A stretch of 64,000 bases of DNA from Kiritimatiellia bacterium (GTDB taxonomy: Bacteria; Verrucomicrobiota; Kiritimatiellia; CAIQIC01; Lenti-01), in NCBI GenBank assembly GCA_017527155.1, contig JAFXQI010000026.1:883-64882 (forward strand), written 5' to 3'. Within the stretch, counting starts at the first letter, position 1. Each line of letters opens with the position of its first letter. The translations under genes were made by a program, and so were the position numbers. Shown here piece by piece: positions 3,509 to 53,493 of this stretch. The notes beneath the pieces are model-generated. The model worked only from the letters and a program-made list of their open reading frames with translations, had not been told where the DNA came from and did not search any database.

Positions 3509-3567
3509 CGCGATATCAAGGAAAACCCAAGCGTTTTCAACCGTTTTCCACCCTGTTCCACCCCATG
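3509..3567 (+). promoter_or_regulatory. UE family copy upstream of pilin-like gene
   Basis: CGCGATATCAAGGAAAAC-N7-TTTTCA...TTTTCC...CCACCCCATGG. The GGAAAAC-to-ATG distance is 45 nt; the gene start lies 90 nt further downstream. Confidence 0.5.
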
Positions 3568-9068: not shown

Positions 9069-9204
9069 GTTTTCCAACCATTGGAAAAAAGTTCCCGCCG
9101 TTTTCCAATGATTGGAAAAATTTTTGCCGTTTTTTCCAATGATTGGAAAATATTTTTCCAATGGTTGGAAAATTCCGCGGATTTTTTCCAATGGTTGGAA
9201 AATG
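9069..9204 (-). repeat. AT-rich palindrome array A (5 copies, inverted relative to arrays B/C/D)
   Basis: Five TTTTCCAA-N3-TTGGAAAA units centred at 9079, 9110, 9141, 9163 and 9193. The spacing 31-31-22-30 mirrors arrays C and D. Confidence 0.9.
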
Positions 9205-34695: not shown

Positions 34696-34820
34696 TTTTC
34701 CAACGATTGGAAAAAAACTTTCCAATCATTGGAAAAACCGGCGCGAATTTTCCAACCATTGGAAAAATATTTTCCAATCATTGGAAAACCGCCGAAAAAT
34801 TTTTCCAATCGTTGGAAAAC
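34696..34820 (+). repeat. AT-rich palindrome array B (5 copies)
   Basis: Units centred at 34705, 34727, 34757, 34779 and 34810 (spacing 22-30-22-31). Long identical runs shared with array C. Confidence 0.9.
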
Positions 34821-35751: not shown

Positions 35752-35910
35752 AATTTTCCAACCATTGGAAAAAAAGTTTCCAATCATTGGAAAAACCGGC
35801 GCGAATTTTCCAACCATTGGAAAAATATTTTCCAATCATTGGAAAAAACCGGAAAATTTTTTCCAATCATTGGAAAACCGGCGAAAAATTTTTCCAATCG
35901 TTGGAAAACT
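35752..35910 (+). repeat. AT-rich palindrome array C (6 copies)
   Basis: Units centred at 35763, 35785, 35815, 35837, 35868 and 35899 (spacing 22-30-22-31-31). Confidence 0.9.
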
Positions 35911-36986: not shown

Positions 36987-37265
36987 ATGACGGAACCCGC
37001 ACCTGCAATCGGATTGTTCGAAGCCAAGACGCATTTTTCGCGCATCGTCGACGACGTGGTCAACGGGCGCAGCGGCGCCGTGCCGGTGATGCGCCGCGGG
37101 AAACCGGCCGTGTACATCGTGGCGGACGCCTTCTACCGCCAGGCCACCGCCGGGGCCTCCCCGGGCATCCGCTACGGGCTGGCCAAGGGCAAATACCGGT
37201 TGGCGCGCGGCATCGACGCCGGCAACGCCGAAGTCCTCCGGCTCTTCCGCGGCGGTGAAGCGTGA
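36987..37265 (+). CDS. type II antitoxin, Phd/YefM-like
   Basis: 92 aa. GLFEAKTHFSRIVDDVVNG...PVMRRGKPAVYIV. Stop overlaps the toxin GTG start (GTGA). Confidence 0.75.
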   Translation: MTEPAPAIGLFEAKTHFSRIVDDVVNGRSGAVPVMRRGKPAVYIVADAFYRQATAGASPGIRYGLAKGKYRLARGIDAGNAEVLRLFRGGEA

Positions 37266-37648
37266 AGTACCTGCTGGACACGCACCTGCTGCTCTGGGCC
37301 ATCGTGGACGACCCCGCCTTCCCTCCGCGCGCCCGCAAGCTCCTGGCGGAAAGCGGCGCCGAGGCCTACTTCAGCGCCGCGTCCGTCTGGGAGGTGGCCA
37401 TCAAGAACGGCCTGCCCCACCGCTCGCTGGGGATACCGGCGGACGCCTTCCGGCGCGAATGCCTGGCGGCGGGCTTCCGCGAACTGCCCGTTGCGTCGCG
37501 CCACGCGGCGGCGGTCGAGTCGCTCCCGCACCGCCACGAGGACCCCTTCGACCGCATCCTCCTCGCCCAGGCCATCGAAGAAGACTGCACCTTCCTGACC
37601 CACGACACCCTCCTCCCCTCCTACGGCCCTCCCGTCCGCCGCGTGTGA
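37262..37648 (+). CDS. vapC: PIN-domain toxin
   Basis: MKYLLDTHLLLW, SVWEVAIK, HEDPFDRILLAQA, LTHD. The conserved acidic PIN residues are in the expected order. Confidence 0.85.
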   Translation: MKYLLDTHLLLWAIVDDPAFPPRARKLLAESGAEAYFSAASVWEVAIKNGLPHRSLGIPADAFRRECLAAGFRELPVASRHAAAVESLPHRHEDPFDRILLAQAIEEDCTFLTHDTLLPSYGPPVRRV

Positions 37649-39930: not shown

Positions 39931-40070
39931 GGGTTGAAAGGTTGAAGGGGTGAAAGGTTGAAGGGTTGAAGGGTTGAGGGAATGGGCCGTCCTTCATCTT
40001 TTCAACCTTTCCACCTTTCAACCTTTCAACTTTTCAACCTTTCAACCTTTCAACCTTTCAACCTTTCACC
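39931..40070. repeat. large asymmetric hairpin with 8-nt micro-tandem arms, copy 2
   Basis: Left arm has ~6 units of GTTGAAGG/GTTGAAAG (39931-39980). Right arm has 10 units of CTTTCAAC (39991-40070). Ends 110 nt upstream of the RND start. Confidence 0.85.
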
Positions 40071-40179
40071 GGGCTTCGTGCTTTGCACATTCGCCCTTGC
40101 GGGGGGAGGGGGAAAATGGGTAGGATGGGGGGTCTCCGCGCAATGCGGGGGTAGTGTCTCCAAGGAAAGGATGTCATCC

Positions 40180-43100
40180 ATGTTCAGCAAAATCTTCATC
40201 GACCGGCCGAGGCTCGCGTTCGTGTGTTCGATCGTGCTCATGCTCGCGGGGGCCATCTGCGTGACGAAGCTGCCCGTGGAGGAGTACCCCGACATCGCGC
40301 CGCCCCAGATCTACGTGATGTGCAACTACCCCGGCGCCACTTCCCAGACGGTCCTCGACACGGTCGGCACCGCCATCGAGTCGCAGATCAACGGCGTCGA
40401 CGGCCTGCTCTACTACTCCGCCAACGCCGAGGACAACGGCAATTTCTTCGCCCAGGTCGATTTCCAGCCCGGCACCGACACCGACATCGCGATGGTCAAC
40501 GTCCAGAACGCCGTCAAGCGCGCCGAGCCCTCCCTCCCCGAGGAGGTCACCCGCCAGGGCGTCAACGTCAACAAGCGCTCCAGCGACATCCTCTGCGTGT
40601 ACGCGTTCATGACCGACGGCTCGCACATGAGCTCGATGGAGCTGAACAACTACGTCTCGAAGAACATCGCCGACGCGCTCTCCCGCGTCGACGGCGTCGG
40701 CTCCGTCACCGCCATGGGCGACACCTACGCGATGCGCATCTGGCTCGACCCCGTCCGCATGGACGGCCTCGGGGTCACCGTCGCCGAGGTCAACGCCGCG
40801 GTCTCCTCGCAGAACCTGCAGGCGACGGCCGGCAGCGTCGGCGGCGAGCGCGCGAACCCCTACGTGCAGTACCGCATCAGCACGATGGGCCGCCTGCAGA
40901 CGCCGGAGCAGTTCGAGGACATCGTGGTCCGCACGGGCGCGGACGGCAGCGTGCTGCGCATCCGGGACATCGGCCGCGCGGAGCTGGGGGCGCAGATGAC
41001 GTCGTTCATCGGCGAGTACAACGGCCGCAACGCGGTGGCGCTGATGGCCTACCGCGACACCGGCGCCAACGCCGTCGGCACCATCGCCCGCGTCAAGGCG
41101 GAGCTGGAAAGCTGGCGGGAGCGCCTGCCGGAGGGCGTCGATTTCCAGATCACCTACGACCCGTCGGAGTCGGTGGTGGTCTCGCTCAAGGAGACGGCCT
41201 TCACGCTGGTGCTGACGCTGCTGCTGGTGATCCTCATCACATACCTCTTCCTCCAGGACTGGCGCGCGACGATCGTGCCGGCGGTGGCGATCCCCGTCTC
41301 GCTGCTGGGCGCGTTCCCGTTCGTGTACGCGCTGGGGTTCTCGCTGAACACGCTGACGCTCTTCGGCCTGGTGCTGGTGATCGGGTCGCTGGTGGACGAC
41401 GCGATCGTCGTCGTCGAGAACTGCCAGTCCCTCATGCAGCGCGAAAAGCTCTCCGCCCGCGCCGCCGCCATCAAGTGCATGGAGCAGATCACCGGCGCCA
41501 TCATCGCGACGACCCTCGTCACCGTCGCCTGCTACGTCCCGCTCGCGTTCTACGGCGGCATGGTCGGTACCATCTACGTGCAGTTCGCCGTGACGATGTG
41601 CGTGTCGCTCTGCATCTCGACCTTCGTGGCCATGACCCTCTCGCCGGCCCTCTGCTCCCTCGTGCTGCGGCCGCCGCGCGAGAAGCCCGCGAAGATCTTC
41701 GCCCCCTTCAACCTCCTCGTGGACGGCTCGCGCAAGTTCAGCAACCTGTTCGTCGGGTTCCTCGTGCGGCGGAGCGTGTTCGCGGTCGCGATCCTGGCGC
41801 TCTTCGTCGCGGGCATCTGGGGCGTGTCCAAGCTCGTCCCCGGCTCCTTCCTGCCCGAAGAAGACAAGGGCATCGTCTTCTGCGACATCGGCCTGCCCGA
41901 AGGCGCCTCCCTCGAGCGCACCATGGACTCCGTCCGCGCCTTCCGCGACAAGACCGCCATGGTCCCCGAAGTCGACCGCACCATGGCCATCGCCGGCTTC
42001 GGCATGATCAACGGCGCCGGCGAATCCTCCGGCATGCTCATGGCCGGCCTCAAGCACTGGGACGACCGCGCCGGCAAGGGCCAGGACGCCGCCTCCCTCA
42101 AGAACAAACTCATGGGCCTGGGCATGACCCCCATCGGCTCCGACCCCGACTCCCTGGCGGCGCAGACCGACGCGCGCGTCATCTGCTTCACCCCGCCCGC
42201 CATCCAGGGGCTGGGCATGACCGGCGGCCTCTCCCTCTACCTCGCGAGCGACGGCTCCCTCAGCTCCTCCGAACTCGCCGCGGCCGCCGACAAACTCGCC
42301 GTCGACATCCAGCAGCTCACCGATTCCAAGGGCCGCAAGCTCGCCGCCTCCGCCAACAACTCCTTCGTCGCCAACACCCCCAAACTCTACCTCGACGTCG
42401 ACCGCGAAAAAGCCATCTCCCTCGGCATCAACATCTCCCAGCTCTTCTTCACCCTCCAGTCCCAGCTCGCCAGCTACTACATCAACGACTTCAACATGAT
42501 GGGCGAAGCCTTCTACGTCAAGATGCAGTCCGAGCAATCCTCCCGCACCAGCGAAGAATCCGTCCTCGCCCTCCAGATCCCCACCTCCTCCGGCGGCAGC
42601 GTCCCCCTCTCCACCATCGCCACCCTGCGGCACGAAAAGAGCTCCCGCGTCCTCCAGCGCTACAACAAGATGAACGCCGCCAAACTCACCGCCCAGTGCG
42701 CCCCCGGCGTCCCCACCAAGACCCTCATGGACGCCATCGAAACCATCCCCCTCCCCAAAGGCTGCTCCATCGAATGGACCGACATGTCCTTCCAGGAAAA
42801 ACAGAACCAGGGCCAGATCGTCTCCCTCATGGCCCTCGCCCTTTTGTTCGCCTTCCTCTTCCTCGTCGCCCAGTACGAGAGCTGGTCCATCCCCGTCCCC
42901 GTCATGCTCACCGTCGCCACCGCCACCTTCGGCGCCATGCTCGGCATCTGGGCGTGCAGCGGCAGCTGGGGCCTCGCCCACGGATTCGGCAGCGCCGGGT
43001 CCCTCTCCATCTACGCCCAGCTCGGCCTCGTCATGCTCATCGGCCTCTCCGCCAAGAACGCCATCCTCATGGTCGAATTCTCCAAACAGGAACGCGAAGC

Positions 43101-44763
43101 CGGCCAGCCCATCCCCGAAGCCGCCCGCAACGGCTTCAACATGCGCTACCGCGCCGTCCTCATGACCGCCTGGAGCTTCATCTTCGGCGTCATTCCCCTC
43201 GTCTTCGCCTCCGGCGCCGGTTGCAACAGCCGAATCGCCATCGGCGTCACCACCTGCACCGGGATGCTCATGGCCACCTTCGTCGGCATCCTCCTGACCC
43301 CCGGCCTGTACGCCTTCTTCCAGACCCTCCGCGAAGGCGTCAAACACCTCATCCACATGAAAACCTCCGTCGAGATCGCCGCCGAACACCGCGCCGAAGA
43401 AGCCGCCCGCGCCAAAGCCCGCGCCGCCGCCAAGACCCTCGCCCTCCTGCTGATTGCCGGCATCACCGCCATCCTCGCCACCGGCTGCGGAACCATCCGC
43501 ATGGCCCGCGACGCCCAGGCCACCGACACCGAACGCACCCTCCGCTGGACCGAGACCCCCTTCGCCGAACAAACCCCCATCCCCGTCGAAGCCCTCGCCC
43601 AGTGGGCCCGCACCAACGTCCCCGCCGTCGTCCAGGCCCGCGAAGACGTCGTGCAGGCCCAGATCGCCCTCCGCTCCATCAAAGCCTCTTATATCCCTGT
43701 CATCGACGGAAGCATCGCTTATACCTATGCTTCCGCCAACATCGACCCCCACGACACCTCTTGGGACGGCGACGGCATCTGGGACGGCAAACTCACCCTC
43801 AACTGGCTCCTCTTCGACTTCGGCCGCACCCCGGCCGCCACCCGGCAAGCCGTCGCCCGCCTCGCCGCCGCCGACCAGGCCGCGCGCGCCGCCGAACAGA
43901 CCGCCGCCTACAACGTCCGCGCCGCCTGCTTCGAACTCCTGCGCAAGACCGAACTCCACGCCGTCGCCCAGGCCAACGCCGCCGCCTACAAAGACCACCT
44001 CGAACAGACCCAGCACCGCTACGACGTCGGCGCCGTCACCAGCTACGAAGTCTCCAAGGCCCGCGTCGATTCCGAGAACGCCCGCCTCGCCGAAATCGTC
44101 GCCGCACACGGCGTCCAGACCGCCCGCGCCGGCCTCGCCCTCGCCCTCGGCCTCGCCGAAAACCCCGACATCGACCTCCAGCCCCTCGAAACCGCCCCCG
44201 ACACCCGCACCCTCGACGACCTCTGGGCCATCGCCCAGACCAACGCCCCATCCCTCGCCGCCCTGCGCGCCGCCGCCGACGCCGCCAAAAACTACGTCGA
44301 CTGGACCATCTGCGACCTCTACCCCAAACTCTCCCTCACCCTCACCTTCGACGCCCAAGGCGACAGCACCCCGCTTTTGTGGAACTACGCCGCCGTCCCC
44401 GCCGCCGCCCAGACCCTCTTCGCCGGCCGCGCCAAGACCCGCCAGATCGAGACCGCCGTCTCCCAACTCCGCGCCGCCCGCAGCAAACTCGCCGCCGCCG
44501 AACAGACTCTCTACAACACCCTCCTGAACGCCACCCTTTCCGCCCAAAGCGCCCAGGACGCCCTCGACGTCGCCCAAAGCGCCGCCGCCGCCGCCCAGGA
44601 AAACTTCGACATCGTCTCCAGCCGCTACGATGTCGGCAAAGCCTCCGTCCTCGAACGCACCGACGCCCAAGTCGCCCTCTCCCGCGCCCAAGCCGAAGTC
44701 GTCACCGCCCGCTACAACCTCCTCGACACCCGCATCCTCATCACCCGCCTCATCGGCGAGTGA
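40180..44763 (+). CDS. RND (AcrB-type) transporter continuous in frame with TolC/OprM-type outer-membrane factor
   Basis: AAGGAAAGG RBS then ATG 40180. MFSKIFIDRPRLAFV... 12-TM RND. No stop occurs before the OMF segment (lipobox-like LATGC plus TolC-type repeats), so the ORF is 1527 codons. The track start 39982 lies inside the 8-nt repeats. Confidence 0.85.
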   Translation: MFSKIFIDRPRLAFVCSIVLMLAGAICVTKLPVEEYPDIAPPQIYVMCNYPGATSQTVLDTVGTAIESQINGVDGLLYYSANAEDNGNFFAQVDFQPGTDTDIAMVNVQNAVKRAEPSLPEEVTRQGVNVNKRSSDILCVYAFMTDGSHMSSMELNNYVSKNIADALSRVDGVGSVTAMGDTYAMRIWLDPVRMDGLGVTVAEVNAAVSSQNLQATAGSVGGERANPYVQYRISTMGRLQTPEQFEDIVVRTGADGSVLRIRDIGRAELGAQMTSFIGEYNGRNAVALMAYRDTGANAVGTIARVKAELESWRERLPEGVDFQITYDPSESVVVSLKETAFTLVLTLLLVILITYLFLQDWRATIVPAVAIPVSLLGAFPFVYALGFSLNTLTLFGLVLVIGSLVDDAIVVVENCQSLMQREKLSARAAAIKCMEQITGAIIATTLVTVACYVPLAFYGGMVGTIYVQFAVTMCVSLCISTFVAMTLSPALCSLVLRPPREKPAKIFAPFNLLVDGSRKFSNLFVGFLVRRSVFAVAILALFVAGIWGVSKLVPGSFLPEEDKGIVFCDIGLPEGASLERTMDSVRAFRDKTAMVPEVDRTMAIAGFGMINGAGESSGMLMAGLKHWDDRAGKGQDAASLKNKLMGLGMTPIGSDPDSLAAQTDARVICFTPPAIQGLGMTGGLSLYLASDGSLSSSELAAAADKLAVDIQQLTDSKGRKLAASANNSFVANTPKLYLDVDREKAISLGINISQLFFTLQSQLASYYINDFNMMGEAFYVKMQSEQSSRTSEESVLALQIPTSSGGSVPLSTIATLRHEKSSRVLQRYNKMNAAKLTAQCAPGVPTKTLMDAIETIPLPKGCSIEWTDMSFQEKQNQGQIVSLMALALLFAFLFLVAQYESWSIPVPVMLTVATATFGAMLGIWACSGSWGLAHGFGSAGSLSIYAQLGLVMLIGLSAKNAILMVEFSKQEREAGQPIPEAARNGFNMRYRAVLMTAWSFIFGVIPLVFASGAGCNSRIAIGVTTCTGMLMATFVGILLTPGLYAFFQTLREGVKHLIHMKTSVEIAAEHRAEEAARAKARAAAKTLALLLIAGITAILATGCGTIRMARDAQATDTERTLRWTETPFAEQTPIPVEALAQWARTNVPAVVQAREDVVQAQIALRSIKASYIPVIDGSIAYTYASANIDPHDTSWDGDGIWDGKLTLNWLLFDFGRTPAATRQAVARLAAADQAARAAEQTAAYNVRAACFELLRKTELHAVAQANAAAYKDHLEQTQHRYDVGAVTSYEVSKARVDSENARLAEIVAAHGVQTARAGLALALGLAENPDIDLQPLETAPDTRTLDDLWAIAQTNAPSLAALRAAADAAKNYVDWTICDLYPKLSLTLTFDAQGDSTPLLWNYAAVPAAAQTLFAGRAKTRQIETAVSQLRAARSKLAAAEQTLYNTLLNATLSAQSAQDALDVAQSAAAAAQENFDIVSSRYDVGKASVLERTDAQVALSRAQAEVVTARYNLLDTRILITRLIGE
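43357..44763 (+). CDS. alternative reading: OMF lipoprotein initiated at internal in-frame ATG
   Basis: MKTSVEIAAEHRAEEAARAKARAAAKTLALLLIAGITAILATGC then a TolC family body. No SD-like sequence within 15 nt upstream of ATG 43357. Confidence 0.4.
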   Translation: MKTSVEIAAEHRAEEAARAKARAAAKTLALLLIAGITAILATGCGTIRMARDAQATDTERTLRWTETPFAEQTPIPVEALAQWARTNVPAVVQAREDVVQAQIALRSIKASYIPVIDGSIAYTYASANIDPHDTSWDGDGIWDGKLTLNWLLFDFGRTPAATRQAVARLAAADQAARAAEQTAAYNVRAACFELLRKTELHAVAQANAAAYKDHLEQTQHRYDVGAVTSYEVSKARVDSENARLAEIVAAHGVQTARAGLALALGLAENPDIDLQPLETAPDTRTLDDLWAIAQTNAPSLAALRAAADAAKNYVDWTICDLYPKLSLTLTFDAQGDSTPLLWNYAAVPAAAQTLFAGRAKTRQIETAVSQLRAARSKLAAAEQTLYNTLLNATLSAQSAQDALDVAQSAAAAAQENFDIVSSRYDVGKASVLERTDAQVALSRAQAEVVTARYNLLDTRILITRLIGE

Positions 44764-45386
44764 CCCCTCCCATCTACCAAGGCACCGTCCTCTTCTGCCG
44801 CCGCTTCCTGCCGGTGCGCGGGGACCGCACCGTCGACCAGATGACGCAGGCCGCCCGCAGCTGCAAACAGAACATCGCCAAAGGCAGCGCCGCCTCGGGC
44901 ACCTCCCGCGAAACCGAGATCAAGCTCACCAACGTCGCCCGTGCCACCCTCGACGAACTCATGGAAGACTACCTCGACTGGCTCAAGGCCCACGGCGCCG
45001 CCGAGTGGCCCGCCGACGATCCCCGCCGCCTGGCCGCCCGCGACTTCGCCCGGAAGCACGCCGATTGGGAAGACTGGCTCCCCATCTTCGAGACCCGCCC
45101 CGCCGAAACCGCCGCGAACCTCATGCTGACCCTCTGCCACCAGACCCGCTACATCCTCGACAAGATGCTCGCCTCCCAGGAAGAAGACTTCCGCCTCCAC
45201 GGCGGCGTCCGCGAGCGCATGCACGCCGCCCGCACCGCCACCCGCTCCGCCGACTGGGACAAAGCCCTCCACTCCCGCCTCTCCACCGCCGCCACCCCCG
45301 CAGCCCTCTCCGCCCTTGCCCGCAAGATCAAGCAAGCGGTGGACCGCTCCGTCGAAAGCATCCGCCGCCGCAACGGCTGGGGCTGA
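44760..45386 (+). CDS. four-helix-bundle suffix-domain protein (23S rRNA IVS protein-related)
   Basis: YQGTVLFCRRFLPVRGDRTVDQMTQAARSCKQNIAKGSAASGTSRETEIKLTNVARATLDELMEDY. GTG 44760 overlaps the pump stop (GTGA). It is the terminal part of a long alternate-frame ORF. Confidence 0.7.
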   Translation: MTPPIYQGTVLFCRRFLPVRGDRTVDQMTQAARSCKQNIAKGSAASGTSRETEIKLTNVARATLDELMEDYLDWLKAHGAAEWPADDPRRLAARDFARKHADWEDWLPIFETRPAETAANLMLTLCHQTRYILDKMLASQEEDFRLHGGVRERMHAARTATRSADWDKALHSRLSTAATPAALSALARKIKQAVDRSVESIRRRNGWG

Positions 45387-45547: not shown

Positions 45548-47290
45548 ATGGCGGAAGACAAAGGCAAAACCAAAATCCTGGTCCTCGACGACGAGCGCCT
45601 CATCCGGCTCACCATCGCCGCCAAGCTCCGCCGCCTCGGTTACGAAGCCGTCGCCGTCGCCTCCGTCCCGGAAGCCATGGCCCTGCTCAAGCGCGACGAC
45701 TTCCGCCAGTTCCGCGCCATCATCACCGACATCGTGATGGAAGGCATGGACGGGTTCGTCTTCCGCGACATCGTCCGCGGCCTCGACGCGACGATCCCCA
45801 TGTTCTTCATGACCGCGCTCGACCCGGAGGAGGGCGGCGGCTTCCTCAAGCGCATCCTGGAAGACGCCAACAGCCACTACCTGCCCAAGTCCGTCCGCGC
45901 GGAAGTCCTGCTCAAGCGCGTGGAAAGCATCGTGGGGTCGCGCCGGGTCGAACGCTTCATCGAGCGCCAGGCGGCGGAGGCGAAGCAGGCGCTCGCGCTG
46001 GCGGCGCAGGTGCAGCGCAGCATGCTGCCGGTCCGCGCGCTGATGCTGGAACACGGCTTCTACACGACCTGGTGGAAGCCTCAGGAGGAAGTCTCCGGCG
46101 ACCTCTACGAAGCAGTCCCCTTCGGCCACGGCTGCTGGCTGTTCGTGCTGGGCGACGTCCAGGGCCACGGCGTGAGCGCCGCGCTGGCCATGACCGCGGT
46201 CCAGTCCCAGCTCCGCCAGCTCGGCCACGACGACGGCGCCCCGCGCATGGGGCCGGCGGACGTCGCGAACCTCCTCCAGCGGTTCTTCCGCGAGAACCTC
46301 GCCGATGTCTCCTACATGACGGCCCTCATCTGCATCCACCGCCCGCTCGAAAGCACGGTCGAATGGATGAGCTGCGGCGCGCCCGACCTGGTGGTGCTCG
46401 ACCCCGCCCGCGGGGGGGCGGTCGACGTCAACCCGTCGCACCTGGGCGGCCTTCCGATCGGGCTGATGCCGGACACGGTCTACAGCCCCGAGGAAGTCGT
46501 CACCACCCCGCTCACGCCCACGGCCGTCTGCGTGGCCCACACCGACGGCGTGCTCGACATCGCGCGCGATCCCGAAGGCCTCGAACCGCTCCCCGACGAA
46601 GACCGCGAGCGCATCCGCGACGACCTCATCCTGGACGCCCGCCTCGACAGCTCCATCGTCGCCGCCCCCTACAAGTTCATGGCCGCCTGCGAAGACCTCG
46701 GCTACGCCCACTTCGGCGACGACGTCACCGAAGTCCTCTTCGGCGCCCGCCTCCACCGCGAAGGCGTGTTCGACGCCGCCGTCGCCGTCAACTCCGAGGA
46801 CATCGACCGCACCGCCCGCGAGATCGAGGCCTGGTGCACCGGTCGCGGATGGGACGCGATCCTCTCGACCCGCGTCCAGCTCGTCTTCGAGGAAAAGCTG
46901 ATGAACCTGCACGACCACGGCTTCGACTACCCCCAGCGCCTGCGCGAAGCCGTCTGCGTCCGCCTGCGCGAACGCGAACGCAACGGGCACCGCGAGGCCG
47001 AACTGACCGTATGGGACTGCGGGACGCCCGACCCGAGCCTCCTCGTCGCCGCCGGCAGCACCGACGTCGCCTTCGACCTGGCCAACCAGGTCTGGAGCGG
47101 GCGCGGGCGCGGGCGCCTGATGGTCCGGGAGCTGTGCACCGGCGTCGAGCGCAACCGCTACGGCGTGCTCAACGAAACCATCTACCACATCCCCTTCGAC
47201 CCCGACGACACCGACCCCAACGCCCCCGTCCCCGCCCCCGTCCCCCCCGCCCCCGAGCCCCCCGAAATCGACCCCCCGTCCAATCCCTGA
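45548..47290 (+). CDS. response-regulator receiver / PP2C (SpoIIE-type) phosphatase / RsbW-like ATPase-fold fusion protein
   Basis: REC: KILVLDDERL...IITDIVMEGMDG...LPKS. PP2C: EVSGDLYEA...FVLGDVQGHGVSAAL...HTDGV. C-terminal HATPase-like region; Pro-rich tail. Confidence 0.85.
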   Translation: MAEDKGKTKILVLDDERLIRLTIAAKLRRLGYEAVAVASVPEAMALLKRDDFRQFRAIITDIVMEGMDGFVFRDIVRGLDATIPMFFMTALDPEEGGGFLKRILEDANSHYLPKSVRAEVLLKRVESIVGSRRVERFIERQAAEAKQALALAAQVQRSMLPVRALMLEHGFYTTWWKPQEEVSGDLYEAVPFGHGCWLFVLGDVQGHGVSAALAMTAVQSQLRQLGHDDGAPRMGPADVANLLQRFFRENLADVSYMTALICIHRPLESTVEWMSCGAPDLVVLDPARGGAVDVNPSHLGGLPIGLMPDTVYSPEEVVTTPLTPTAVCVAHTDGVLDIARDPEGLEPLPDEDRERIRDDLILDARLDSSIVAAPYKFMAACEDLGYAHFGDDVTEVLFGARLHREGVFDAAVAVNSEDIDRTAREIEAWCTGRGWDAILSTRVQLVFEEKLMNLHDHGFDYPQRLREAVCVRLRERERNGHREAELTVWDCGTPDPSLLVAAGSTDVAFDLANQVWSGRGRGRLMVRELCTGVERNRYGVLNETIYHIPFDPDDTDPNAPVPAPVPPAPEPPEIDPPSNP

Positions 47291-47326
47291 TTCCACCAAC
47301 CGCCCACCACCGATAGGAGCCATCCG

Positions 47327-47635
47327 ATGAAACCCTGCTGCAAAGCCTTCCTCTCCGAGCAATTCGGCGGCGACGAAGACATCGTCGCCGAAATCTACGC
47401 CGAATACGTCACGTCCCTCCACGCCAAGGCCCAGGAAGCCGCCGACCGGCTGGCCGCCGCCGACTGGCAGCGCCTCGACGAAACCGCCCATGCCATCAAG
47501 GGCAACGCCCTCGTCGCCGGCGACACCGAGACCGCCGACGCCGCCATCGCCCTGCGCGGCGCCTCCAAGCTCGGCGACTCCGCCAAGGCCGGCGAACTCG
47601 TCGCCCGCATCCGCGAACTCGCCGCCCAGCTCTGA
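47327..47635 (+). CDS. HPt (histidine phosphotransfer) domain protein
   Basis: 102 aa, helical. ETAHAIKGNALVAGD is the H-x2-KG phosphohistidine motif. AGGAG RBS. Confidence 0.8.
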   Translation: MKPCCKAFLSEQFGGDEDIVAEIYAEYVTSLHAKAQEAADRLAAADWQRLDETAHAIKGNALVAGDTETADAAIALRGASKLGDSAKAGELVARIRELAAQL

Positions 47636-48564
47636 TGCCGCCGCACGCCTGGCAGGCACCCGACGCCGACCGCATCGTCGACGGCGCCATCGCCGGAATC
47701 CGTACCGATCTCGACCGCCTGGCCGTACCCGGGCTCGCCGGCGTCGTCCTCGGCGGCGGCTACGGCCGCGGCGAAGGCGGCGTCAAGCCCGACGGCACCC
47801 TTTCCAACGACCTCGACTTCTTCGCCATCGCCGCCGAGGGCGCCACCGACCGCGACGCCGCCCGCCTCGCACGCGCCCTGACCCCCCTCGCCGCCGACTG
47901 GACCGCCCGCCTCGGCATCGACGTCGACTTCACCGCCAAGACCCCCTTCCGCCTGCGCCACGACGCCGAGCGCCTGATGGTCCAGGAACTCCTCCGCGGC
48001 CACGTCGGCGTCTGGGGTGCGCCCGGCGCCGACCTCTTCGCCGGCATCCCCCTGCGCGACGCCGGCGAACTCCCCTGGACCGAAGCCGTACGCCTGCTCG
48101 CCAACCGCGGCATGGGGCTCCTCTTCGCGCGCGAAGCCGGCCGCGGCCCCGACTTCACCGCCCGCAACATCACGAAAGCCGTCCTCGGCGCCGGCGACGC
48201 CCGCCTCATCGCCCGCCACGACTACCGCTGGCGCGCCGGCGACCGCCGCGAAGCCCTTTCCGATTCCCTCTACGCCCGCGCCCTCGACTGGAAATTCCGC
48301 CCCGTCGCCGCTCCTCCCTGTCCTTGGGAGCAGGCCCGCGCCTGCTGGCTTTCCGCCGCCTCCGAAATCCGCGCCGCCGCCCGCCCCCGCCGCAGCCTCC
48401 GCGACCTCGCCCGCTGGCTCGCCCGCCGCCGCACCCCCGGCCCCCTCCGTACCCTCGCCCTCGATCCCGTCTTCCGCCTCTTCGACGAAATCGACGCCAT
48501 CCTCCAATCCCCATCCCCGAAAACCACCCCCTCCCTCCTCCGCGACTGGCAGACCTTCGGCTGA
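47635..48564 (+). CDS. Pol-beta-superfamily nucleotidyltransferase-fold protein with helical C-domain
   Basis: VVLGGGYGRGEGGVKPDGTLSNDLDFFAI fits G[GS]-x9-13-D-h-D-h. The ATG overlaps the HPt stop (TGATG). The function of the C-terminal helical half is unknown. Confidence 0.65.
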   Translation: MPPHAWQAPDADRIVDGAIAGIRTDLDRLAVPGLAGVVLGGGYGRGEGGVKPDGTLSNDLDFFAIAAEGATDRDAARLARALTPLAADWTARLGIDVDFTAKTPFRLRHDAERLMVQELLRGHVGVWGAPGADLFAGIPLRDAGELPWTEAVRLLANRGMGLLFAREAGRGPDFTARNITKAVLGAGDARLIARHDYRWRAGDRREALSDSLYARALDWKFRPVAAPPCPWEQARACWLSAASEIRAAARPRRSLRDLARWLARRRTPGPLRTLALDPVFRLFDEIDAILQSPSPKTTPSLLRDWQTFG

Positions 48565-48568
48565 GACG

Positions 48569-49186
48569 ATGTGCACCCGCTTCCACATCGCCCCCGGCAA
48601 CGAAGCCGTCCGCGATCTCGCCCCCGCCGCCCAGGCCTCCCCCCTCGCCGCCCGCTTCGCCTCCGCGGGGCGTCCCCTTCTCCTCGCCGGCGACGTCCGT
48701 CCCACCGACGTCGTGCCCGTCCTCGCGCCGGGCCGTGACGGCGCCCCGCGTCCCTTCCCCATGCAATGGGGATTCCGCCTTCCCGACGGCCCCCTTCTCG
48801 TCAACGCCCGCAGCGAGACCGCCGCCGTCAAACCCGCCTTCCGCGACTCCTGGCTCCGCCGCCGCTGCGCCATCCCCGCCACCTGCTACTACGAATGGGA
48901 GCACCGCCCCGGCCCCTCCGGTCGCACCGTCCCCGGAACCAAATACGCCATCCGTCACCCCGACGCCCCCGTCCTCTGGCTCTGCGCCCTCTACCGCATG
49001 GAGGCCGGCCTCCCCGTCTTCGCCGTCCTGACCCGTCCCGCCCCCGCCCCCCTCTCCGACCTCCACCCCCGCATGCCCCTCATCCTCCCCGCCGACGCCA
49101 TTCCCCGCTGGCTCGCCCCCGCCGCCGATCCCGCCCCCCTCCTCCCCCTCGCCCTCTCCTCCCTCGCCGCCACCCCCTCCCCCTGA
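48569..49186 (+). CDS. SOS-response-associated peptidase (SRAP / YedK family)
   Basis: MCTRFHI N-terminal Cys nucleophile, PMQWGF, VNARSET, RCAIPATCYYEW, FAVLT; begins 5 nt after the preceding stop. Confidence 0.88.
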   Translation: MCTRFHIAPGNEAVRDLAPAAQASPLAARFASAGRPLLLAGDVRPTDVVPVLAPGRDGAPRPFPMQWGFRLPDGPLLVNARSETAAVKPAFRDSWLRRRCAIPATCYYEWEHRPGPSGRTVPGTKYAIRHPDAPVLWLCALYRMEAGLPVFAVLTRPAPAPLSDLHPRMPLILPADAIPRWLAPAADPAPLLPLALSSLAATPSP

Positions 49187-49233
49187 TTTTCCCAGTCCCA
49201 TCCCCCCCCTTTTTTCCCCGGCTCCAACAAATA

Positions 49234-49292
49234 TTTGGAAACAGGAAAAATCCGCCATTTTCCCGCCATTTCACACCATCTCCATCGCCATG
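49234..49292 (+). promoter_or_regulatory. UE family copy, orphan, followed directly by an R10 repeat
   Basis: TTTGGAAACAGGAAAAAT...ATTTTCC...CATCGCCATGAAAAA. No credible ORF follows; the R10 repeat starts 27 nt later. Confidence 0.45.
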
Positions 49293-50824: not shown

Positions 50825-52279
50825 TCACCCTTCCGAGGCCGCGACGGCCTTCGCCCAGGCGCGCTCCACCAGCTCGGGCGGCGGGGGCTCGATGAGGCCC
50901 GCGTCGCAAAGGGTGGCGAGCGAGGCGCGGGCGGCGGCGATGTCGCGGGCGGCGCGTTCGGCGACGGCGCCGGGCGGCAGCGGACGGCGGGCGAGGCCTT
51001 CGACGATGGCTTGTTGGGCGACGGCTTCGGCGGTTTCGGCGAAGACGGTTTCTTCGTCCATCGTCGGCATGATGCGGTCGGGCGCGAGGCCGGTGCGCTC
51101 GGCGTGGGCGGCGATGGTGCGGGCGGCGGCGATGGCCATCGCGTCGGAGATTTTCCGGGCGCGCACGAGGAGGACGCCTTTCAGGATGCCGGGGAAGCCG
51201 ACCGAGTTGTTGACTTGGTTCGGGAAGTCGCCGCGGCCGGTCGCGACGACGAGCGCGCCCGCGGCGTGCGCCGCGTAGGGATAAATCTCCGGCACCGGAT
51301 TCGCGCACGCGAAGACGATGGCGCGCGGCGCCATGCGGGCGATCCACTCGCCGGGGATGGCGTCGGGGCCGGGCTTGGCGAGCGATACCAGCGCGTCGGC
51401 GCCGGCGAGCGCGGCGTCGAGCGTCGCGATGCGGTCCGGGTTGGTGGTGCGGCAGAGCTCCCATTTGCGGTAAAAGCGCGGGTCGGCTTCGAGGTCCGTG
51501 CGCCCGGCGTGGAGCCCGCCGCGCGAGTCGAAGAGCGCCATCCGCGACGGGTCCGCGCCCGCCGCGATGAGGAGCCGCGCGATGGTGGTGTTCGCCGCGC
51601 CGGCGCCGTTGAGGACGATGCGCGCTTGGGACAGCTCCTTGCCGGCGACCTTCATCGCGTTGATCATCCCCGCGACGGTGACGCACCCGGTGCCCTGCGC
51701 GTCGTCGTGCCAGACGGGGATGGAGCAGCTCTCGCGCAGCTCGTCGAGGACCTTGAAGCAGTTCGGCTGGGAGATGTCCTCGAGGTTGACCGCGCCGTAG
51801 CTGGGCGCGAGGCGACGCACGAGGTCGATGAGCACGTCGGGATCCGGCTTCCCGCCGGGCCCGCGGCTGTCGATGCATACGGGGACGGCGTCCACGCCGC
51901 CGAGCACCTTCATGAGGTACGCCTTGCCCTCCATGACGCCCATGCCGCCGGGCGGCGTGACGTCGCCGTCGCCGAGCACGCGGGTGGAGTCGCTGACGAC
52001 GGCGACGGTGTTCCCGCGGCAGGTGAGTTCGAACGACAGGTCGTTGTCGTCGCGGATGGCGGTGGATACGGCGGAGACGCCCGGCGTGTACCACGCGTTG
52101 TACCACGCGCTCGACGGCAGCGGCGCGCGGGGCATGGTCTGGATCTTGCCGCCCCAGAAGCGGTGGGCGTCGAGTGCGAGCGCCTTGTAGAACGCGGTCT
52201 TGGCGCGCGCCTTGCGCGCCTCGTCCCAACCGCCGGGAATGCGCCCGGCGAGCGGATCGGAATGGATGGTTTCGTTCAT
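50825..52279 (-). CDS. NAD(P)-dependent malic enzyme (short form, no PTA domain)
   Basis: YTPGVSAV, VAVVSDSTRVLGDGDVTPPGGMGVMEGKAYL, VNLEDISQPNCF, IPVWHDDAQGTG, NGAGAANTTIA. Only the last 484 codons of a 1064-aa track ORF are credible. Confidence 0.92.
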   Translation of the reverse strand: MNETIHSDPLAGRIPGGWDEARKARAKTAFYKALALDAHRFWGGKIQTMPRAPLPSSAWYNAWYTPGVSAVSTAIRDDNDLSFELTCRGNTVAVVSDSTRVLGDGDVTPPGGMGVMEGKAYLMKVLGGVDAVPVCIDSRGPGGKPDPDVLIDLVRRLAPSYGAVNLEDISQPNCFKVLDELRESCSIPVWHDDAQGTGCVTVAGMINAMKVAGKELSQARIVLNGAGAANTTIARLLIAAGADPSRMALFDSRGGLHAGRTDLEADPRFYRKWELCRTTNPDRIATLDAALAGADALVSLAKPGPDAIPGEWIARMAPRAIVFACANPVPEIYPYAAHAAGALVVATGRGDFPNQVNNSVGFPGILKGVLLVRARKISDAMAIAAARTIAAHAERTGLAPDRIMPTMDEETVFAETAEAVAQQAIVEGLARRPLPPGAVAERAARDIAAARASLATLCDAGLIEPPPPELVERAWAKAVAASEG

Positions 52280-52313
52280 GTCGGAATCCTTAGGCATCAA
52301 TTGGAACAGGTCA

Positions 52314-52388
52314 GGTGGGGCGAGCTCTCCGAGCGAGCCGCATGGGGCCGGGGAGGAGGGCGGCTCGCACGGAGTGCTCGCCCTACCA
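52314..52388. repeat. REP-1 hairpin
   Basis: Same arms as 50737-50803 in the same orientation, with a different loop; it directly precedes array D. Confidence 0.8.
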
Positions 52389-52399
52389 CGGCTGGAAAC

Positions 52400-52556
52400 G
52401 TTTTCCAACCATTGGAAACTTTTTTTCCAATCATTGGAAAAAACGGGCCCGATTTTCCAACCATTGGAAAAATATTTTCCAATCGTTGGAAAAAACGGGA
52501 AAATTTTTTCCAATGGTTGGAAAACGGCCGGGAATTTTTTCCAATCATTGGAAAAC
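52400..52556 (+). repeat. AT-rich palindrome array D (6 copies)
   Basis: Units centred at 52410, 52432, 52462, 52484, 52515 and 52546 (spacing 22-30-22-31-31, identical to array C). Confidence 0.9.
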
Positions 52557-52698
52557 CGCGGGGGGCGCGCCGCGGGCAAAAAAGGCCCCCCGGCCGCGTC
52601 GGTGGGGATGCTTGTGATGGCCGGTCCCGGGAGGGGGGGGAGAGGGAGCCGGCCGAGCGCCGAGCGCGGGCAGGGGGCGAGGGTTCCGGGGCGGGCGG

Positions 52699-53493
52699 TC
52701 AGAAGGAGAAGCTCGCCTTGCCGCCGCCGTAGTAGTCCATGGCGTCGTCGGTGGTCGTGCCGAAGAAGCCGCTGATCGTGAACAGGTCGTTCGCGCGGAA
52801 CGCGAGGCCGGCGTGGCAGCGGACCCAGCAGTCGCTGTCCTTTTTCGGCGCGTCGTCGCGCAGCTGGACTTCGGCGAAGAGGCTGGAGAGGACGCCGCCG
52901 TAGACGCGCGGCATCTCGTTGAGGTCCCAGATCAGGGAGACCGCGCCCATCGCGACATCGTCGTCGGTGAAGTTGATGGCGTCGTTGATGCCGTAGCTGA
53001 TGTCGGCGCCCCAGTGGAGGCAGTCGTAGGTGGTGGTGCCGGCGGAGATGCCGAAGGTGGCGCCCGTGGTGCCGGTGCCGAGGCGGTCGTCTTCGTCGCC
53101 GGTCGCCCAGCGGACGTCGACGTAGGGGATGATCCACGCGTAGTCGAAGATGTCCTCGAAGAACAGGAACTGCAGGCCGGTGTGGACGTCGCCGATGCCG
53201 GACTTGTCCTTTTCGTGGCTGAAGTCCCAGCCGGCGAAGGGCACCCACGCGGTCAGGGCCAGGCGGTCGGTGATGCCGAAGCGGGCGGCGGGGCCGACCT
53301 GGTAGATGACGGCGTCGTCGGTCGAGTATTCCGCGTCGAATCCGGCGAAGATGCCCTGGACGGAGAGTTCGACGCCCAGCTGCTCGGGCAGGCGGTTTTC
53401 CATCGTGAAGAGCGTGCGGACGGGTTCGGCCGACGCCACGGACGCGAGCAGCCCCAGGGCCGCCACGGATACCATCAGTTTTTCGAATCTCAT
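52699..53493 (-). CDS. outer-membrane beta-barrel protein (MetA/phenol-degradation-like transporter family, tentative)
   Basis: Signal peptide MRFEKLMVSVAALGLLASVASA. Alternating amphipathic beta pattern. C-terminal ...GGGKASFSF with terminal Phe. Confidence 0.6.
   Translation of the reverse strand: MRFEKLMVSVAALGLLASVASAEPVRTLFTMENRLPEQLGVELSVQGIFAGFDAEYSTDDAVIYQVGPAARFGITDRLALTAWVPFAGWDFSHEKDKSGIGDVHTGLQFLFFEDIFDYAWIIPYVDVRWATGDEDDRLGTGTTGATFGISAGTTTYDCLHWGADISYGINDAINFTDDDVAMGAVSLIWDLNEMPRVYGGVLSSLFAEVQLRDDAPKKDSDCWVRCHAGLAFRANDLFTISGFFGTTTDDAMDYYGGGKASFSF

Follow-up and report, generated by a model that had tools for sequence, protein, structure and literature searches.

A nucleotidyltransferase family conserved within partner-switch gene clusters of gut Kiritimatiellae and Lentisphaerae, and an SRAP gene that probably joined it as a passenger

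The locus and its four genes

We examined a 64,000-nucleotide stretch (hereafter the window) of contig JAFXQI010000026.1 (127,883 bp), from the metagenome-assembled genome of a gut or rumen Kiritimatiellia bacterium. In it, four open reading frames (ORFs) run head to tail on the + strand, in DNA of ~68-70% G+C. The third of them encodes an uncharacterised nucleotidyltransferase of the Pol-beta fold, here called X, which belongs to an undescribed family. By comparison with its relatives, this is a pared-down form of a seven-gene cluster of signalling and sugar-enzyme genes, one that is conserved among Kiritimatiellae and Lentisphaerae of the gut. The four genes are as follows.

45548-47290, + strand: HsbR-like response regulator with REC, PP2C/SpoIIE phosphatase and RsbW-like GHKL serine kinase domains (580 aa; from Pfam and motif alignment)
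47327-47635, + strand: stand-alone HPt phosphotransfer protein, HptB-like (102 aa; from Pfam Hpt and the motif AHAIKGN)
47635-48564, + strand: X, uncharacterised Pol-beta-fold nucleotidyltransferase with a helical C-domain (309 aa; from motifs, an AlphaFold2 model, Foldseek and synteny)
48569-49186, + strand: SRAP/YedK-family peptidase (205 aa; from Pfam SRAP)

An earlier reading made from the letters alone (the sequence-only reading) had placed four genes at these positions, and the ORFs and their domains bear it out, as they do the overlap that it reported between the start of X and the HPt stop: the two codons have a single base in common, within TGATG at 47633-47637. Four bases separate the stop codon of X from the ATG of the SRAP gene. 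NCBI labels X as a 'hypothetical protein' (MBR4252504.1) and its neighbor as an SRAP family protein (MBR4252503.1), and the surroundings consist of housekeeping genes, such as pyrH, secA, and UDP-glucose dehydrogenase-like and alanine racemase-like genes. Upon scanning the whole window with tblastn and hidden Markov models (HMMs), we found neither a STAS gene nor a gene for a hybrid histidine kinase (HK). The earlier statement that no histidine kinase lies nearby thus holds for the window, but not for most relatives, where a STAS gene and a hybrid HK gene, both overlooked by the sequence-only reading, lie directly 3' of X.

The HsbR-like regulator and the HPt protein

The first two gene products show the make-up of a signalling pair. 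The HsbR-like protein matched the Pfam families Response_reg (46 bits) and SpoIIE/PP2C (93.6 bits), and HATPase_c_2 at 25.2 bits, slightly below the cutoff of 27.4. In an alignment of 12 homologues from the Planctomycetes-Verrucomicrobia-Chlamydiae (PVC) group, invariant or nearly invariant positions comprised D14/D15, D61, T89 and K114 of the REC domain, the SGD, GDxxGHG, TDG and DD motifs of the PP2C domain, and the N-box ExxxNxxxHG (E449..N453..H457-G458) and the G-boxes of the kinase. Because all of the expected catalytic residues are retained in this way, we treat the protein as presumably HsbR-like in action, by its architecture and motifs and with no orthology implied. Among PDB sequences, the nearest match to span both REC and PP2C was 3eq2, a REC-PP2C regulator from Pseudomonas. 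The HPt protein scored 27.5 bits against Pfam Hpt (cutoff 24.6) and carries the phospho-accepting histidine motif AHAIKGN (HxxKG), and a 102-aa HPt gene lies directly 3' of the HsbR-like gene in nearly all relatives. Judged by its domains, the combination of a REC-PP2C-GHKL kinase with a stand-alone HPt protein is the HsbR/HptB partner-switching phosphorelay architecture of Pseudomonas aeruginosa (PMC6482189), a correspondence that the sequence-only reading had missed. In that organism, hybrid kinases encoded elsewhere phosphorylate HptB, and HptB phosphorylates the REC domain of HsbR, which switches between adding a phosphate to the STAS protein HsbA and removing it; whether HsbA is phosphorylated then decides its partner among FlgM, HsbR and the diguanylate cyclase HsbD (PMC6482189).

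An undescribed nucleotidyltransferase family

Sequence and profile searches with X found no match in Pfam or NCBIfam (E <= 0.1), in PADLOC, or in the PDB (phmmer and profile search), and X corresponds to no characterised housekeeping enzyme; a homologue in which X is fused to a left-handed-helix (LbH) protein, P0127, gave a sub-threshold match to NTP_transf_2. The family is large and restricted to Kiritimatiellae and Lentisphaerae. We found at least 979 homologues in a set of 5.8 billion proteins, 1638 clusters (at 50% identity) upon a profile search of 1.84 billion representatives at E <= 1e-3, and at least 450 encoding contig stretches in GTDB species-representative genomes, all annotated so far as 'hypothetical protein'. 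The 80 loci that we retrieved came nearly all from Kiritimatiellae, from metagenome-assembled genomes labelled Verrucomicrobia, or from Lentisphaeria or Victivallales.

The motifs GGGY(G/A)RGEGG, LSNDLDFF and G(I/V)DVDF were invariant or nearly so in an alignment of 38 sequences, and supply the G[GS], the DxD and the third carboxylate of Pol-beta nucleotidyltransferases. Among the active-site residues, G41-G42, D59 and D61 were invariant and D96 and D98 at least 90% conserved in these sequences, with consistent strand positions in the AlphaFold2 model. The spacer between GGGYGRGEG and SNDLDFF, which the sequence-only reading had put at ten residues, counts eight in the window and is an insertion-prone loop among relatives. 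The model, built on an alignment of homologues, reached a pLDDT of 95.1 and a pTM of 0.90, and shows an alpha/beta N-domain followed by an eight-helix C-domain. Foldseek matched it in the PDB to the aminoglycoside nucleotidyltransferases (ANTs) ANT(4')/KNTase, AadA, ANT(9) and ANT(3'')(9), and to HalB, MntA and LinB, all with a probability of 1.0 and with TM-scores of only 0.35-0.45 at 10-14% identity; the E-values were 1e-4 to 1e-3 for ANT(4'), AadA, ANT(9), HalB and LinB. The best of these matches (ANT(4'), AadA, ANT(9) and LinB) are enzymes that nucleotidylate sugar hydroxyls. The predicted structure accordingly agrees with the earlier call of a Pol-beta fold with a helical C-terminal half. 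Membership of X in the Pol-beta superfamily is clear, and X is best described as a two-domain enzyme, distantly KNTase-like, that has no near kin among solved structures and no assigned ANT family. Judged from the alignment, it represents an undescribed and strongly conserved nucleotidyltransferase family with intact-looking catalytic carboxylates.

The C-domain bears invariant motifs of its own (EAxRLLxNRG, RNIxKxxLGxGDA, WKFRP and RWxxRRR) and exposes many invariant arginine and lysine residues on its surface. We rejected a reading of X as a HEPN RNase, which had been raised on account of the R-x4-H motif in RLIARH: across the 38 aligned sequences, His195 is replaced by glycine in most homologues and by asparagine or another residue in others. 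When the C-domain was modelled by itself (pLDDT 95.4), the top PDB match was a HEPN-domain protein, 2hsb, at a non-significant E-value of 0.48 (TM 0.38/0.48). The KNTase C-domain is related to HEPN, and the match is at most a faint echo of that relationship.

X within a conserved partner-switch cluster

Relatives of the locus place X within a recurring gene order, seen on individual contigs: an HsbR-like gene, an HPt gene, a gene for a Bac_transf (PF02397) phosphoglycosyl transferase, a gene for a ~309-aa LbH protein, X, a STAS gene, and a hybrid HK gene. The kinase has the architecture SBP_bac_3-HisKA-HATPase_c-REC with a periplasmic SBP_bac_3 sensor, and is often followed 3' by glycosyltransferases or ABC-2/Wzt exporters. 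Neither the Bac_transf gene 5' of X nor the LbH protein, which usually precedes X and is sometimes fused to it, had been noticed in the sequence-only reading. We scanned 91 loci with one HMM per cluster component and counted presence over assessable loci among 80 GTDB species representatives, divided into a close group (X scoring >= 300 bits, 32 species) and a distant, Lentisphaeria-like group (48 species).

HsbR-like gene near X: close group 22/26, distant group 19/35
HPt gene near X: close group 22/26, distant group 14/35
Bac_transf gene near X: close group 24/26, distant group 21/35
LbH gene near X: close group 24/26, distant group 25/46
STAS gene near X: close group 27/29, distant group 1/45
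Hybrid HK gene near X: close group 21/26, distant group 0/43
SRAP gene near X: close group 0/29, distant group 0/45

An independent sample drawn from the STAS side, in JGI metagenomes, had X directly 5' of STAS in 41 of the 45 loci that could be assessed. The STAS protein of relatives, encoded directly 3' of X, carries a HIDSSG motif. In four loci that lack both Bac_transf and LbH (L001, L009, L010 and L094), X still has HPt on one side and STAS on the other. The LbH protein is similar to those sugar-1-phosphate nucleotidyltransferases that have a left-handed helix at the C-terminus (8x7s, GlmU, eIF2B-epsilon), lacks the N-terminal glycine-rich loop, and has a degenerate sugar-nucleotidyltransferase N-domain. 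In many loci, the HMM scan showed the LbH stop overlapping the X start, and five representative proteins are outright LbH-X fusions (P0126, P0127, P0128, P0151 and P0200). Hence, the link between the phosphorelay and the nucleotidyltransferase is real and conserved across two PVC lineages; the neighborhood comparison that the sequence-only reading had proposed found X syntenic with HsbR-like, HPt, LbH and STAS genes across relatives, and the four-gene block with SRAP in a close clade only.

Variants without X also occur, namely a tight HsbR-HPt-STAS-HK cluster (L139:1-1021) and a detached STAS-HK pair (L096:261-3903). The existence of these X-free forms suggests that Bac_transf-LbH-X is a cassette that was inserted into an ancestral four-gene signalling operon. 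In Lentisphaeria, a further uncharacterised cluster member is encoded between the LbH gene and X, a conserved protein of ~110-130 aa with an N-terminal hydrophobic helix, the motifs LSLDRYPxLW, VFRYSD and DDxYFxHHR, and no Pfam match (L054:5627-5965, L075:5645-5974, L050, L066, L072, L078, L082, L085, L087, L088 and others).

SRAP in place of STAS

The SRAP protein itself is ordinary. It matched Pfam SRAP at E = 1.8e-29 (103 bits), begins with MCTRF with a cysteine at position 2, and finds YedK and HMCES chains among its PDB matches; the glutamate and histidine of the SRAP triad presumably lie in NARSET and HPRMP, where we placed them by eye on the pattern of YedK. Compared with Escherichia coli YedK and human HMCES, it stands out by nothing other than its place after X, and this in one clade: SRAP adjoined X in 0 of the 74 assessable species representatives and occurred there only in the window's own clade, at 78-96% identity of X. 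The gene found 3' of X changes with distance from the window as follows.

L006-L008, X 96% identical to that of the window: SRAP 3' of X, spaced as in the window
L092, X 83% identical: a Peptidase_M15 gene, then SRAP
L093, X 78% identical: a 103-nt gap, then SRAP
L094, X 76% identical: STAS 3' of X
L009, X 66% identical: STAS 3' of X

In one shallow clade, then, SRAP took the place of STAS or entered as the STAS-HK pair moved off. Since SRAP is limited to that clade and STAS holds the slot at 76% and 66% identity, its link to X is one of operon packing, and SRAP is a co-oriented, probably co-transcribed passenger and no conserved member of the module. The alternative of mere packing that the sequence-only reading had allowed thus fits SRAP but not X, whose linkage to the phosphorelay is kept in two PVC lineages; likewise, of the HPt-nucleotidyltransferase-SRAP arrangement that it had singled out as unfamiliar, the association of X with the REC-PP2C-kinase and HPt genes proved to be conserved, while the SRAP part did not.

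The STAS protein of the source genome is presumed to be encoded elsewhere. A metagenome scan for the relocated STAS of the SRAP clade gave nothing above 81% identity. The protein at that level, the closest found to the STAS of L094, lies on contig L096, which consists of a repeat array, STAS and HK, with no X 5' of them; it is a mere candidate and illustrates how a detached STAS-HK pair may look.

Transcription of the locus

Contigs assembled from one sheep-gut metatranscriptome run covered most of the four genes. The HPt/X junction was bridged by contigs at 47556-47810 (sheep-gut) and 47547-47719 (a bovine run), and the X/SRAP junction by a sheep-gut contig at 48348-48910, which fits co-transcription of HPt, X and SRAP; among the same assembled contigs, none bridged the HsbR/HPt junction. 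The check on co-transcription that the sequence-only reading had called for thus has bridging contigs in its favour at the last two junctions, unstranded and possibly of DNA origin, and none at the first. Contig depth fell to zero at 48991-49207, shortly before a convergent ABC permease gene. A scan for consensus promoters and terminators was uninformative: it gave a single promoter-like site 3', at 49270, and the + strand showed no terminator.

Comparison with known systems

Most of what is understood about partner switches concerns their control of sigma factors, and their non-transcriptional outputs are poorly known. The cluster described here offers a concrete candidate for such an output, an uncharacterised nucleotidyltransferase family wedged between HPt and STAS and in some genomes fused to LbH. 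Both lineages, Kiritimatiellae and Lentisphaerae, occur in large numbers in the rumen and gut; to our knowledge, hardly any work has addressed their envelope glycans and signalling.

Like P. aeruginosa's HptB-HsbR-HsbA system (with its outputs HsbD and FlgM), the cluster has a stand-alone HPt protein that would feed a regulator of the REC/PP2C/GHKL serine kinase/anti-sigma type, and, in relatives, hybrid histidine kinases as inputs and a single-domain STAS protein with a DSSG phospho-serine motif; in both, the kinases need not be encoded nearby (PMC6482189). It differs in that the HPt and STAS genes are separated by those for Bac_transf, LbH and X, and in that neither a sigma or anti-sigma target nor a GGDEF enzyme turned up in the PVC cluster. 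STAS and HK are absent from the window, and the likeness to HsbR is one of architecture and motifs. A second comparison is offered by SypE-SypA of Vibrio fischeri and HenR-All4160 of Anabaena, where a partner switch likewise sits among polysaccharide genes, including an initiating transferase of the Bac_transf type. Both control glycan production post-transcriptionally and not via sigma factors (PMC8256260, PMC4517449; preprint 10.64898/2026.04.08.717354). What SypA acts on directly has yet to be found (PMC8256260, PMC4517449), and it was not until 2026 that All4160, a STAS-glycosyltransferase under the control of phosphorylation, was reported (preprint 10.64898/2026.04.08.717354). Unlike the PVC cluster, where the conserved neighbor of STAS is X, neither system has a Pol-beta nucleotidyltransferase, and SypE has a different domain order (kinase, REC, PP2C).

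As regards the enzyme, X has in common with ANT(4')/KNTase, AadA/ANT(3'')(9), ANT(9) and LinB an N-terminal Pol-beta nucleotidyltransferase domain (G[GS], DxD and third carboxylate) and a helical C-domain, and ANT(4')/KNTase, AadA, ANT(9) and LinB were its best full-length Foldseek matches. It differs from them in giving no sequence-level match, in being ~50 residues longer with C-domain motifs of its own, and in being a core-genome gene in a signalling operon rather than a resistance gene. HalB, the oligodeoxyadenylate synthase of Hailong, and MntA of the MNT-HEPN pair have the same Pol-beta core and were both among the top Foldseek matches, whereas X comes with no PADLOC match, partner ion channel, HEPN toxin gene or defence island, and its R-x4-H is not conserved.

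The phosphorelay and partner-switch part of the locus is thus known already and the SRAP protein is ordinary, while the X family is undescribed, and its conserved place in a partner-switch operon appeared in none of the papers that a full-text search aimed at this link returned.

Proposed mechanism and alternatives

We think it rather probable that X is an enzyme gated by STAS and linked to the synthesis of envelope glycans, residing in a reduced partner-switch cluster into which SRAP was inserted in one lineage. We tie X to the cluster because of its adjacency to STAS, its adjacency to or translational coupling with HPt or LbH, and the LbH-X fusions. In the proposed sequence of events, a hybrid kinase encoded elsewhere in the source genome would phosphorylate the HPt protein, which would in turn phosphorylate the REC domain of the HsbR-like regulator and thereby decide whether it acts as kinase or as phosphatase on a STAS protein whose gene would likewise lie elsewhere. 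The phospho-state of STAS may then control X through direct binding, with X bound in one of the two states. X itself would transfer a nucleotide to a hydroxyl group on an acceptor of carbohydrate type that belongs to an envelope-glycan pathway and is linked with the phosphoglycosyl transferase and LbH pair, and SRAP would merely ride on the same transcript. A glycan context recurs around X, with glycosyltransferases and Wzt/ABC-2 exporters 3' of the cluster and with a clade that combines a WaaP-like kinase, X, a phosphodiesterase and a family 2 glycosyltransferase (GT2).

We put forward tentatively, and regard as somewhat doubtful, the narrower claim that the switch has X as its direct output, with the nucleotidyltransferase activity switched on or off when X binds STAS in one phospho-form. 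If it is true, X would constitute a new class of partner-switch effector, and would hint at what sort of target proteins made up of STAS alone, SypA for one, may have in polysaccharide control; a full-text literature search turned up no paper linking partner switching with a nucleotidyltransferase. A bolder variant would have X make a nucleotide signal, or nucleotidylate a lipid-linked sugar and thereby license the neighboring phosphoglycosyl transferase.

Several observations weigh against a STAS-gated glycan enzyme. We infer the substrate of X and its binding by STAS from gene order, fusions and distant fold likeness only (the TM-scores and identities given above). STAS adjoined X in just one of the 45 assessable Lentisphaeria-like loci, and a genus-level Lentisphaeria clade (L059-L061, L068-L071, L073, L074, L079 and L055) has a Kdo/WaaP-family lipopolysaccharide (LPS) kinase, X, a type I phosphodiesterase/nucleotide pyrophosphatase and GT2 with no partner-switch genes within 6 kb, which shows that X can work outside the switch; homologues of that phosphodiesterase and GT2 also lie close to the cluster in L013, L058 and L086. 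Within the window, tblastn, hmmsearch and jackhmmer found no Bac_transf or LbH gene, and with STAS and HK absent as well, the pathway in the source organism would depend on genes outside the window. The RNA evidence consists of assembled contigs with no strand information, in which DNA carry-over is possible. Finally, the HsbR-HPt-X-SRAP block persists with differing flanks at 78-96% identity of X (L006-L008, L092 and L093). This persistence fits SRAP lying inside the transcription unit and needs no functional tie, and it leaves some room for such a tie within the window's clade.

We consider it unlikely that X is a plain envelope-glycan enzyme, for LPS or exopolysaccharide, acting with LbH and the phosphoglycosyl transferase while the switch has another target, for instance a sigma factor, and only shares the operon. 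The LbH-X fusions, the overlap of the LbH stop with the X start, the loci of the WaaP-like kinase clade with no signalling genes, and the self-sufficient HsbR-HPt-STAS-HK cluster of L139, which manages without X, all agree with such a division. Yet X stays between HPt and STAS where Bac_transf and LbH have been lost (the four loci named above, with the window's clade listed too), it precedes STAS in nearly all STAS-anchored loci, and the enzyme genes lie inside the signalling operon, not beside it. Lower still we place the chance that X is a protein nucleotidyltransferase, an AMPylase like MntA or GlnE, that modifies STAS, HPt or the HsbR-like regulator as a second layer of control. This would suit the Foldseek match to MntA, which poly-AMPylates its partner HepT, the adjacency or translational coupling of X with HPt and STAS, and the abundance of invariant arginine and lysine on the C-domain surface; the MntA matches, however, span the N-domain only (TM 0.2 on the query), the full-length matches are small-molecule ANTs, and the LbH fusions and signalling-free loci suit a metabolic acceptor better.

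Least probable is the stronger option of the sequence-only reading, that all four genes, SRAP included, make up a single stress or defence module, here with the phosphorelay gating both nucleotidylation and abasic-site crosslinking. The tight spacing and common orientation, the RNA contig across the X/SRAP junction, and the block that is kept with different flanks speak for it. Against it stand the complete lack of SRAP beside X in the species representatives, the slot held by STAS in L094 and L009, and the Peptidase_M15 gene and the 103-nt gap that intervene between X and SRAP in L092 and L093. We rejected a defence role, as PADLOC-DB v2 returned zero matches for all four proteins at E <= 0.1 and the surroundings are of a housekeeping kind. 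The four-gene module is thus largely refuted by synteny, and the apparent coupling of the nucleotidyltransferase to SRAP is no new DNA-damage or defence module; the part of that suggestion that endures is the gating of nucleotidylation by a phosphorelay, a reasonable direction given that the linkage is conserved.

Other features of the window

Directly 5' of the HsbR-like gene, at ~44840-45386 (+ strand), lies a small gene with a four-helix-bundle suffix domain (TIGR04258, 67 bits), kin to the 23S rRNA intervening-sequence proteins; a metatranscriptome contig at 44770-45448 covers it, and its adjacency to the cluster is not kept in relatives. Further upstream, a single 1593-aa ORF (39982-44763, + strand) carries a complete RND transporter (residues 68-1113; ACR_tran, 912 bits) and, fused to it, an outer-membrane factor of the TolC type (OEP domain at residues about 1210-1590), an unusual fusion of an inner-membrane pump with an outer-membrane channel, whose real start is probably near MSSMFSKIF, 3' of the listed ATG. 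A Phd/YefM-like antitoxin gene and a PIN-domain toxin gene with overlapping stop and start (36987-37648, + strand) make up a toxin-antitoxin pair of the VapBC type.

The window also holds four intergenic arrays, at 9072-9200, 34698-34817, 35756-35906 and 52403-52553, and single copies of their unit at 3556 and 58784. The unit is a palindrome, TTCCA-N5-TGGAA, within TTTTCCAnnnnnTGGAAAA; each array has 5-6 units, spaced alternately by ~22 and ~30 bp, and the 24 exact matches compare with 0.03 expected by chance. The same element occurs 5' of the STAS-HK pair in the related metagenome contig (L096:40-200), and the arrays look like a repeat family of Kiritimatiellae that is either REP-like (repetitive extragenic palindromic) or protein-binding. 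The odd 'FSNHWKKF/FQSLEKTG' peptides in spurious ORFs at ~52200-52775 are explained by this element.

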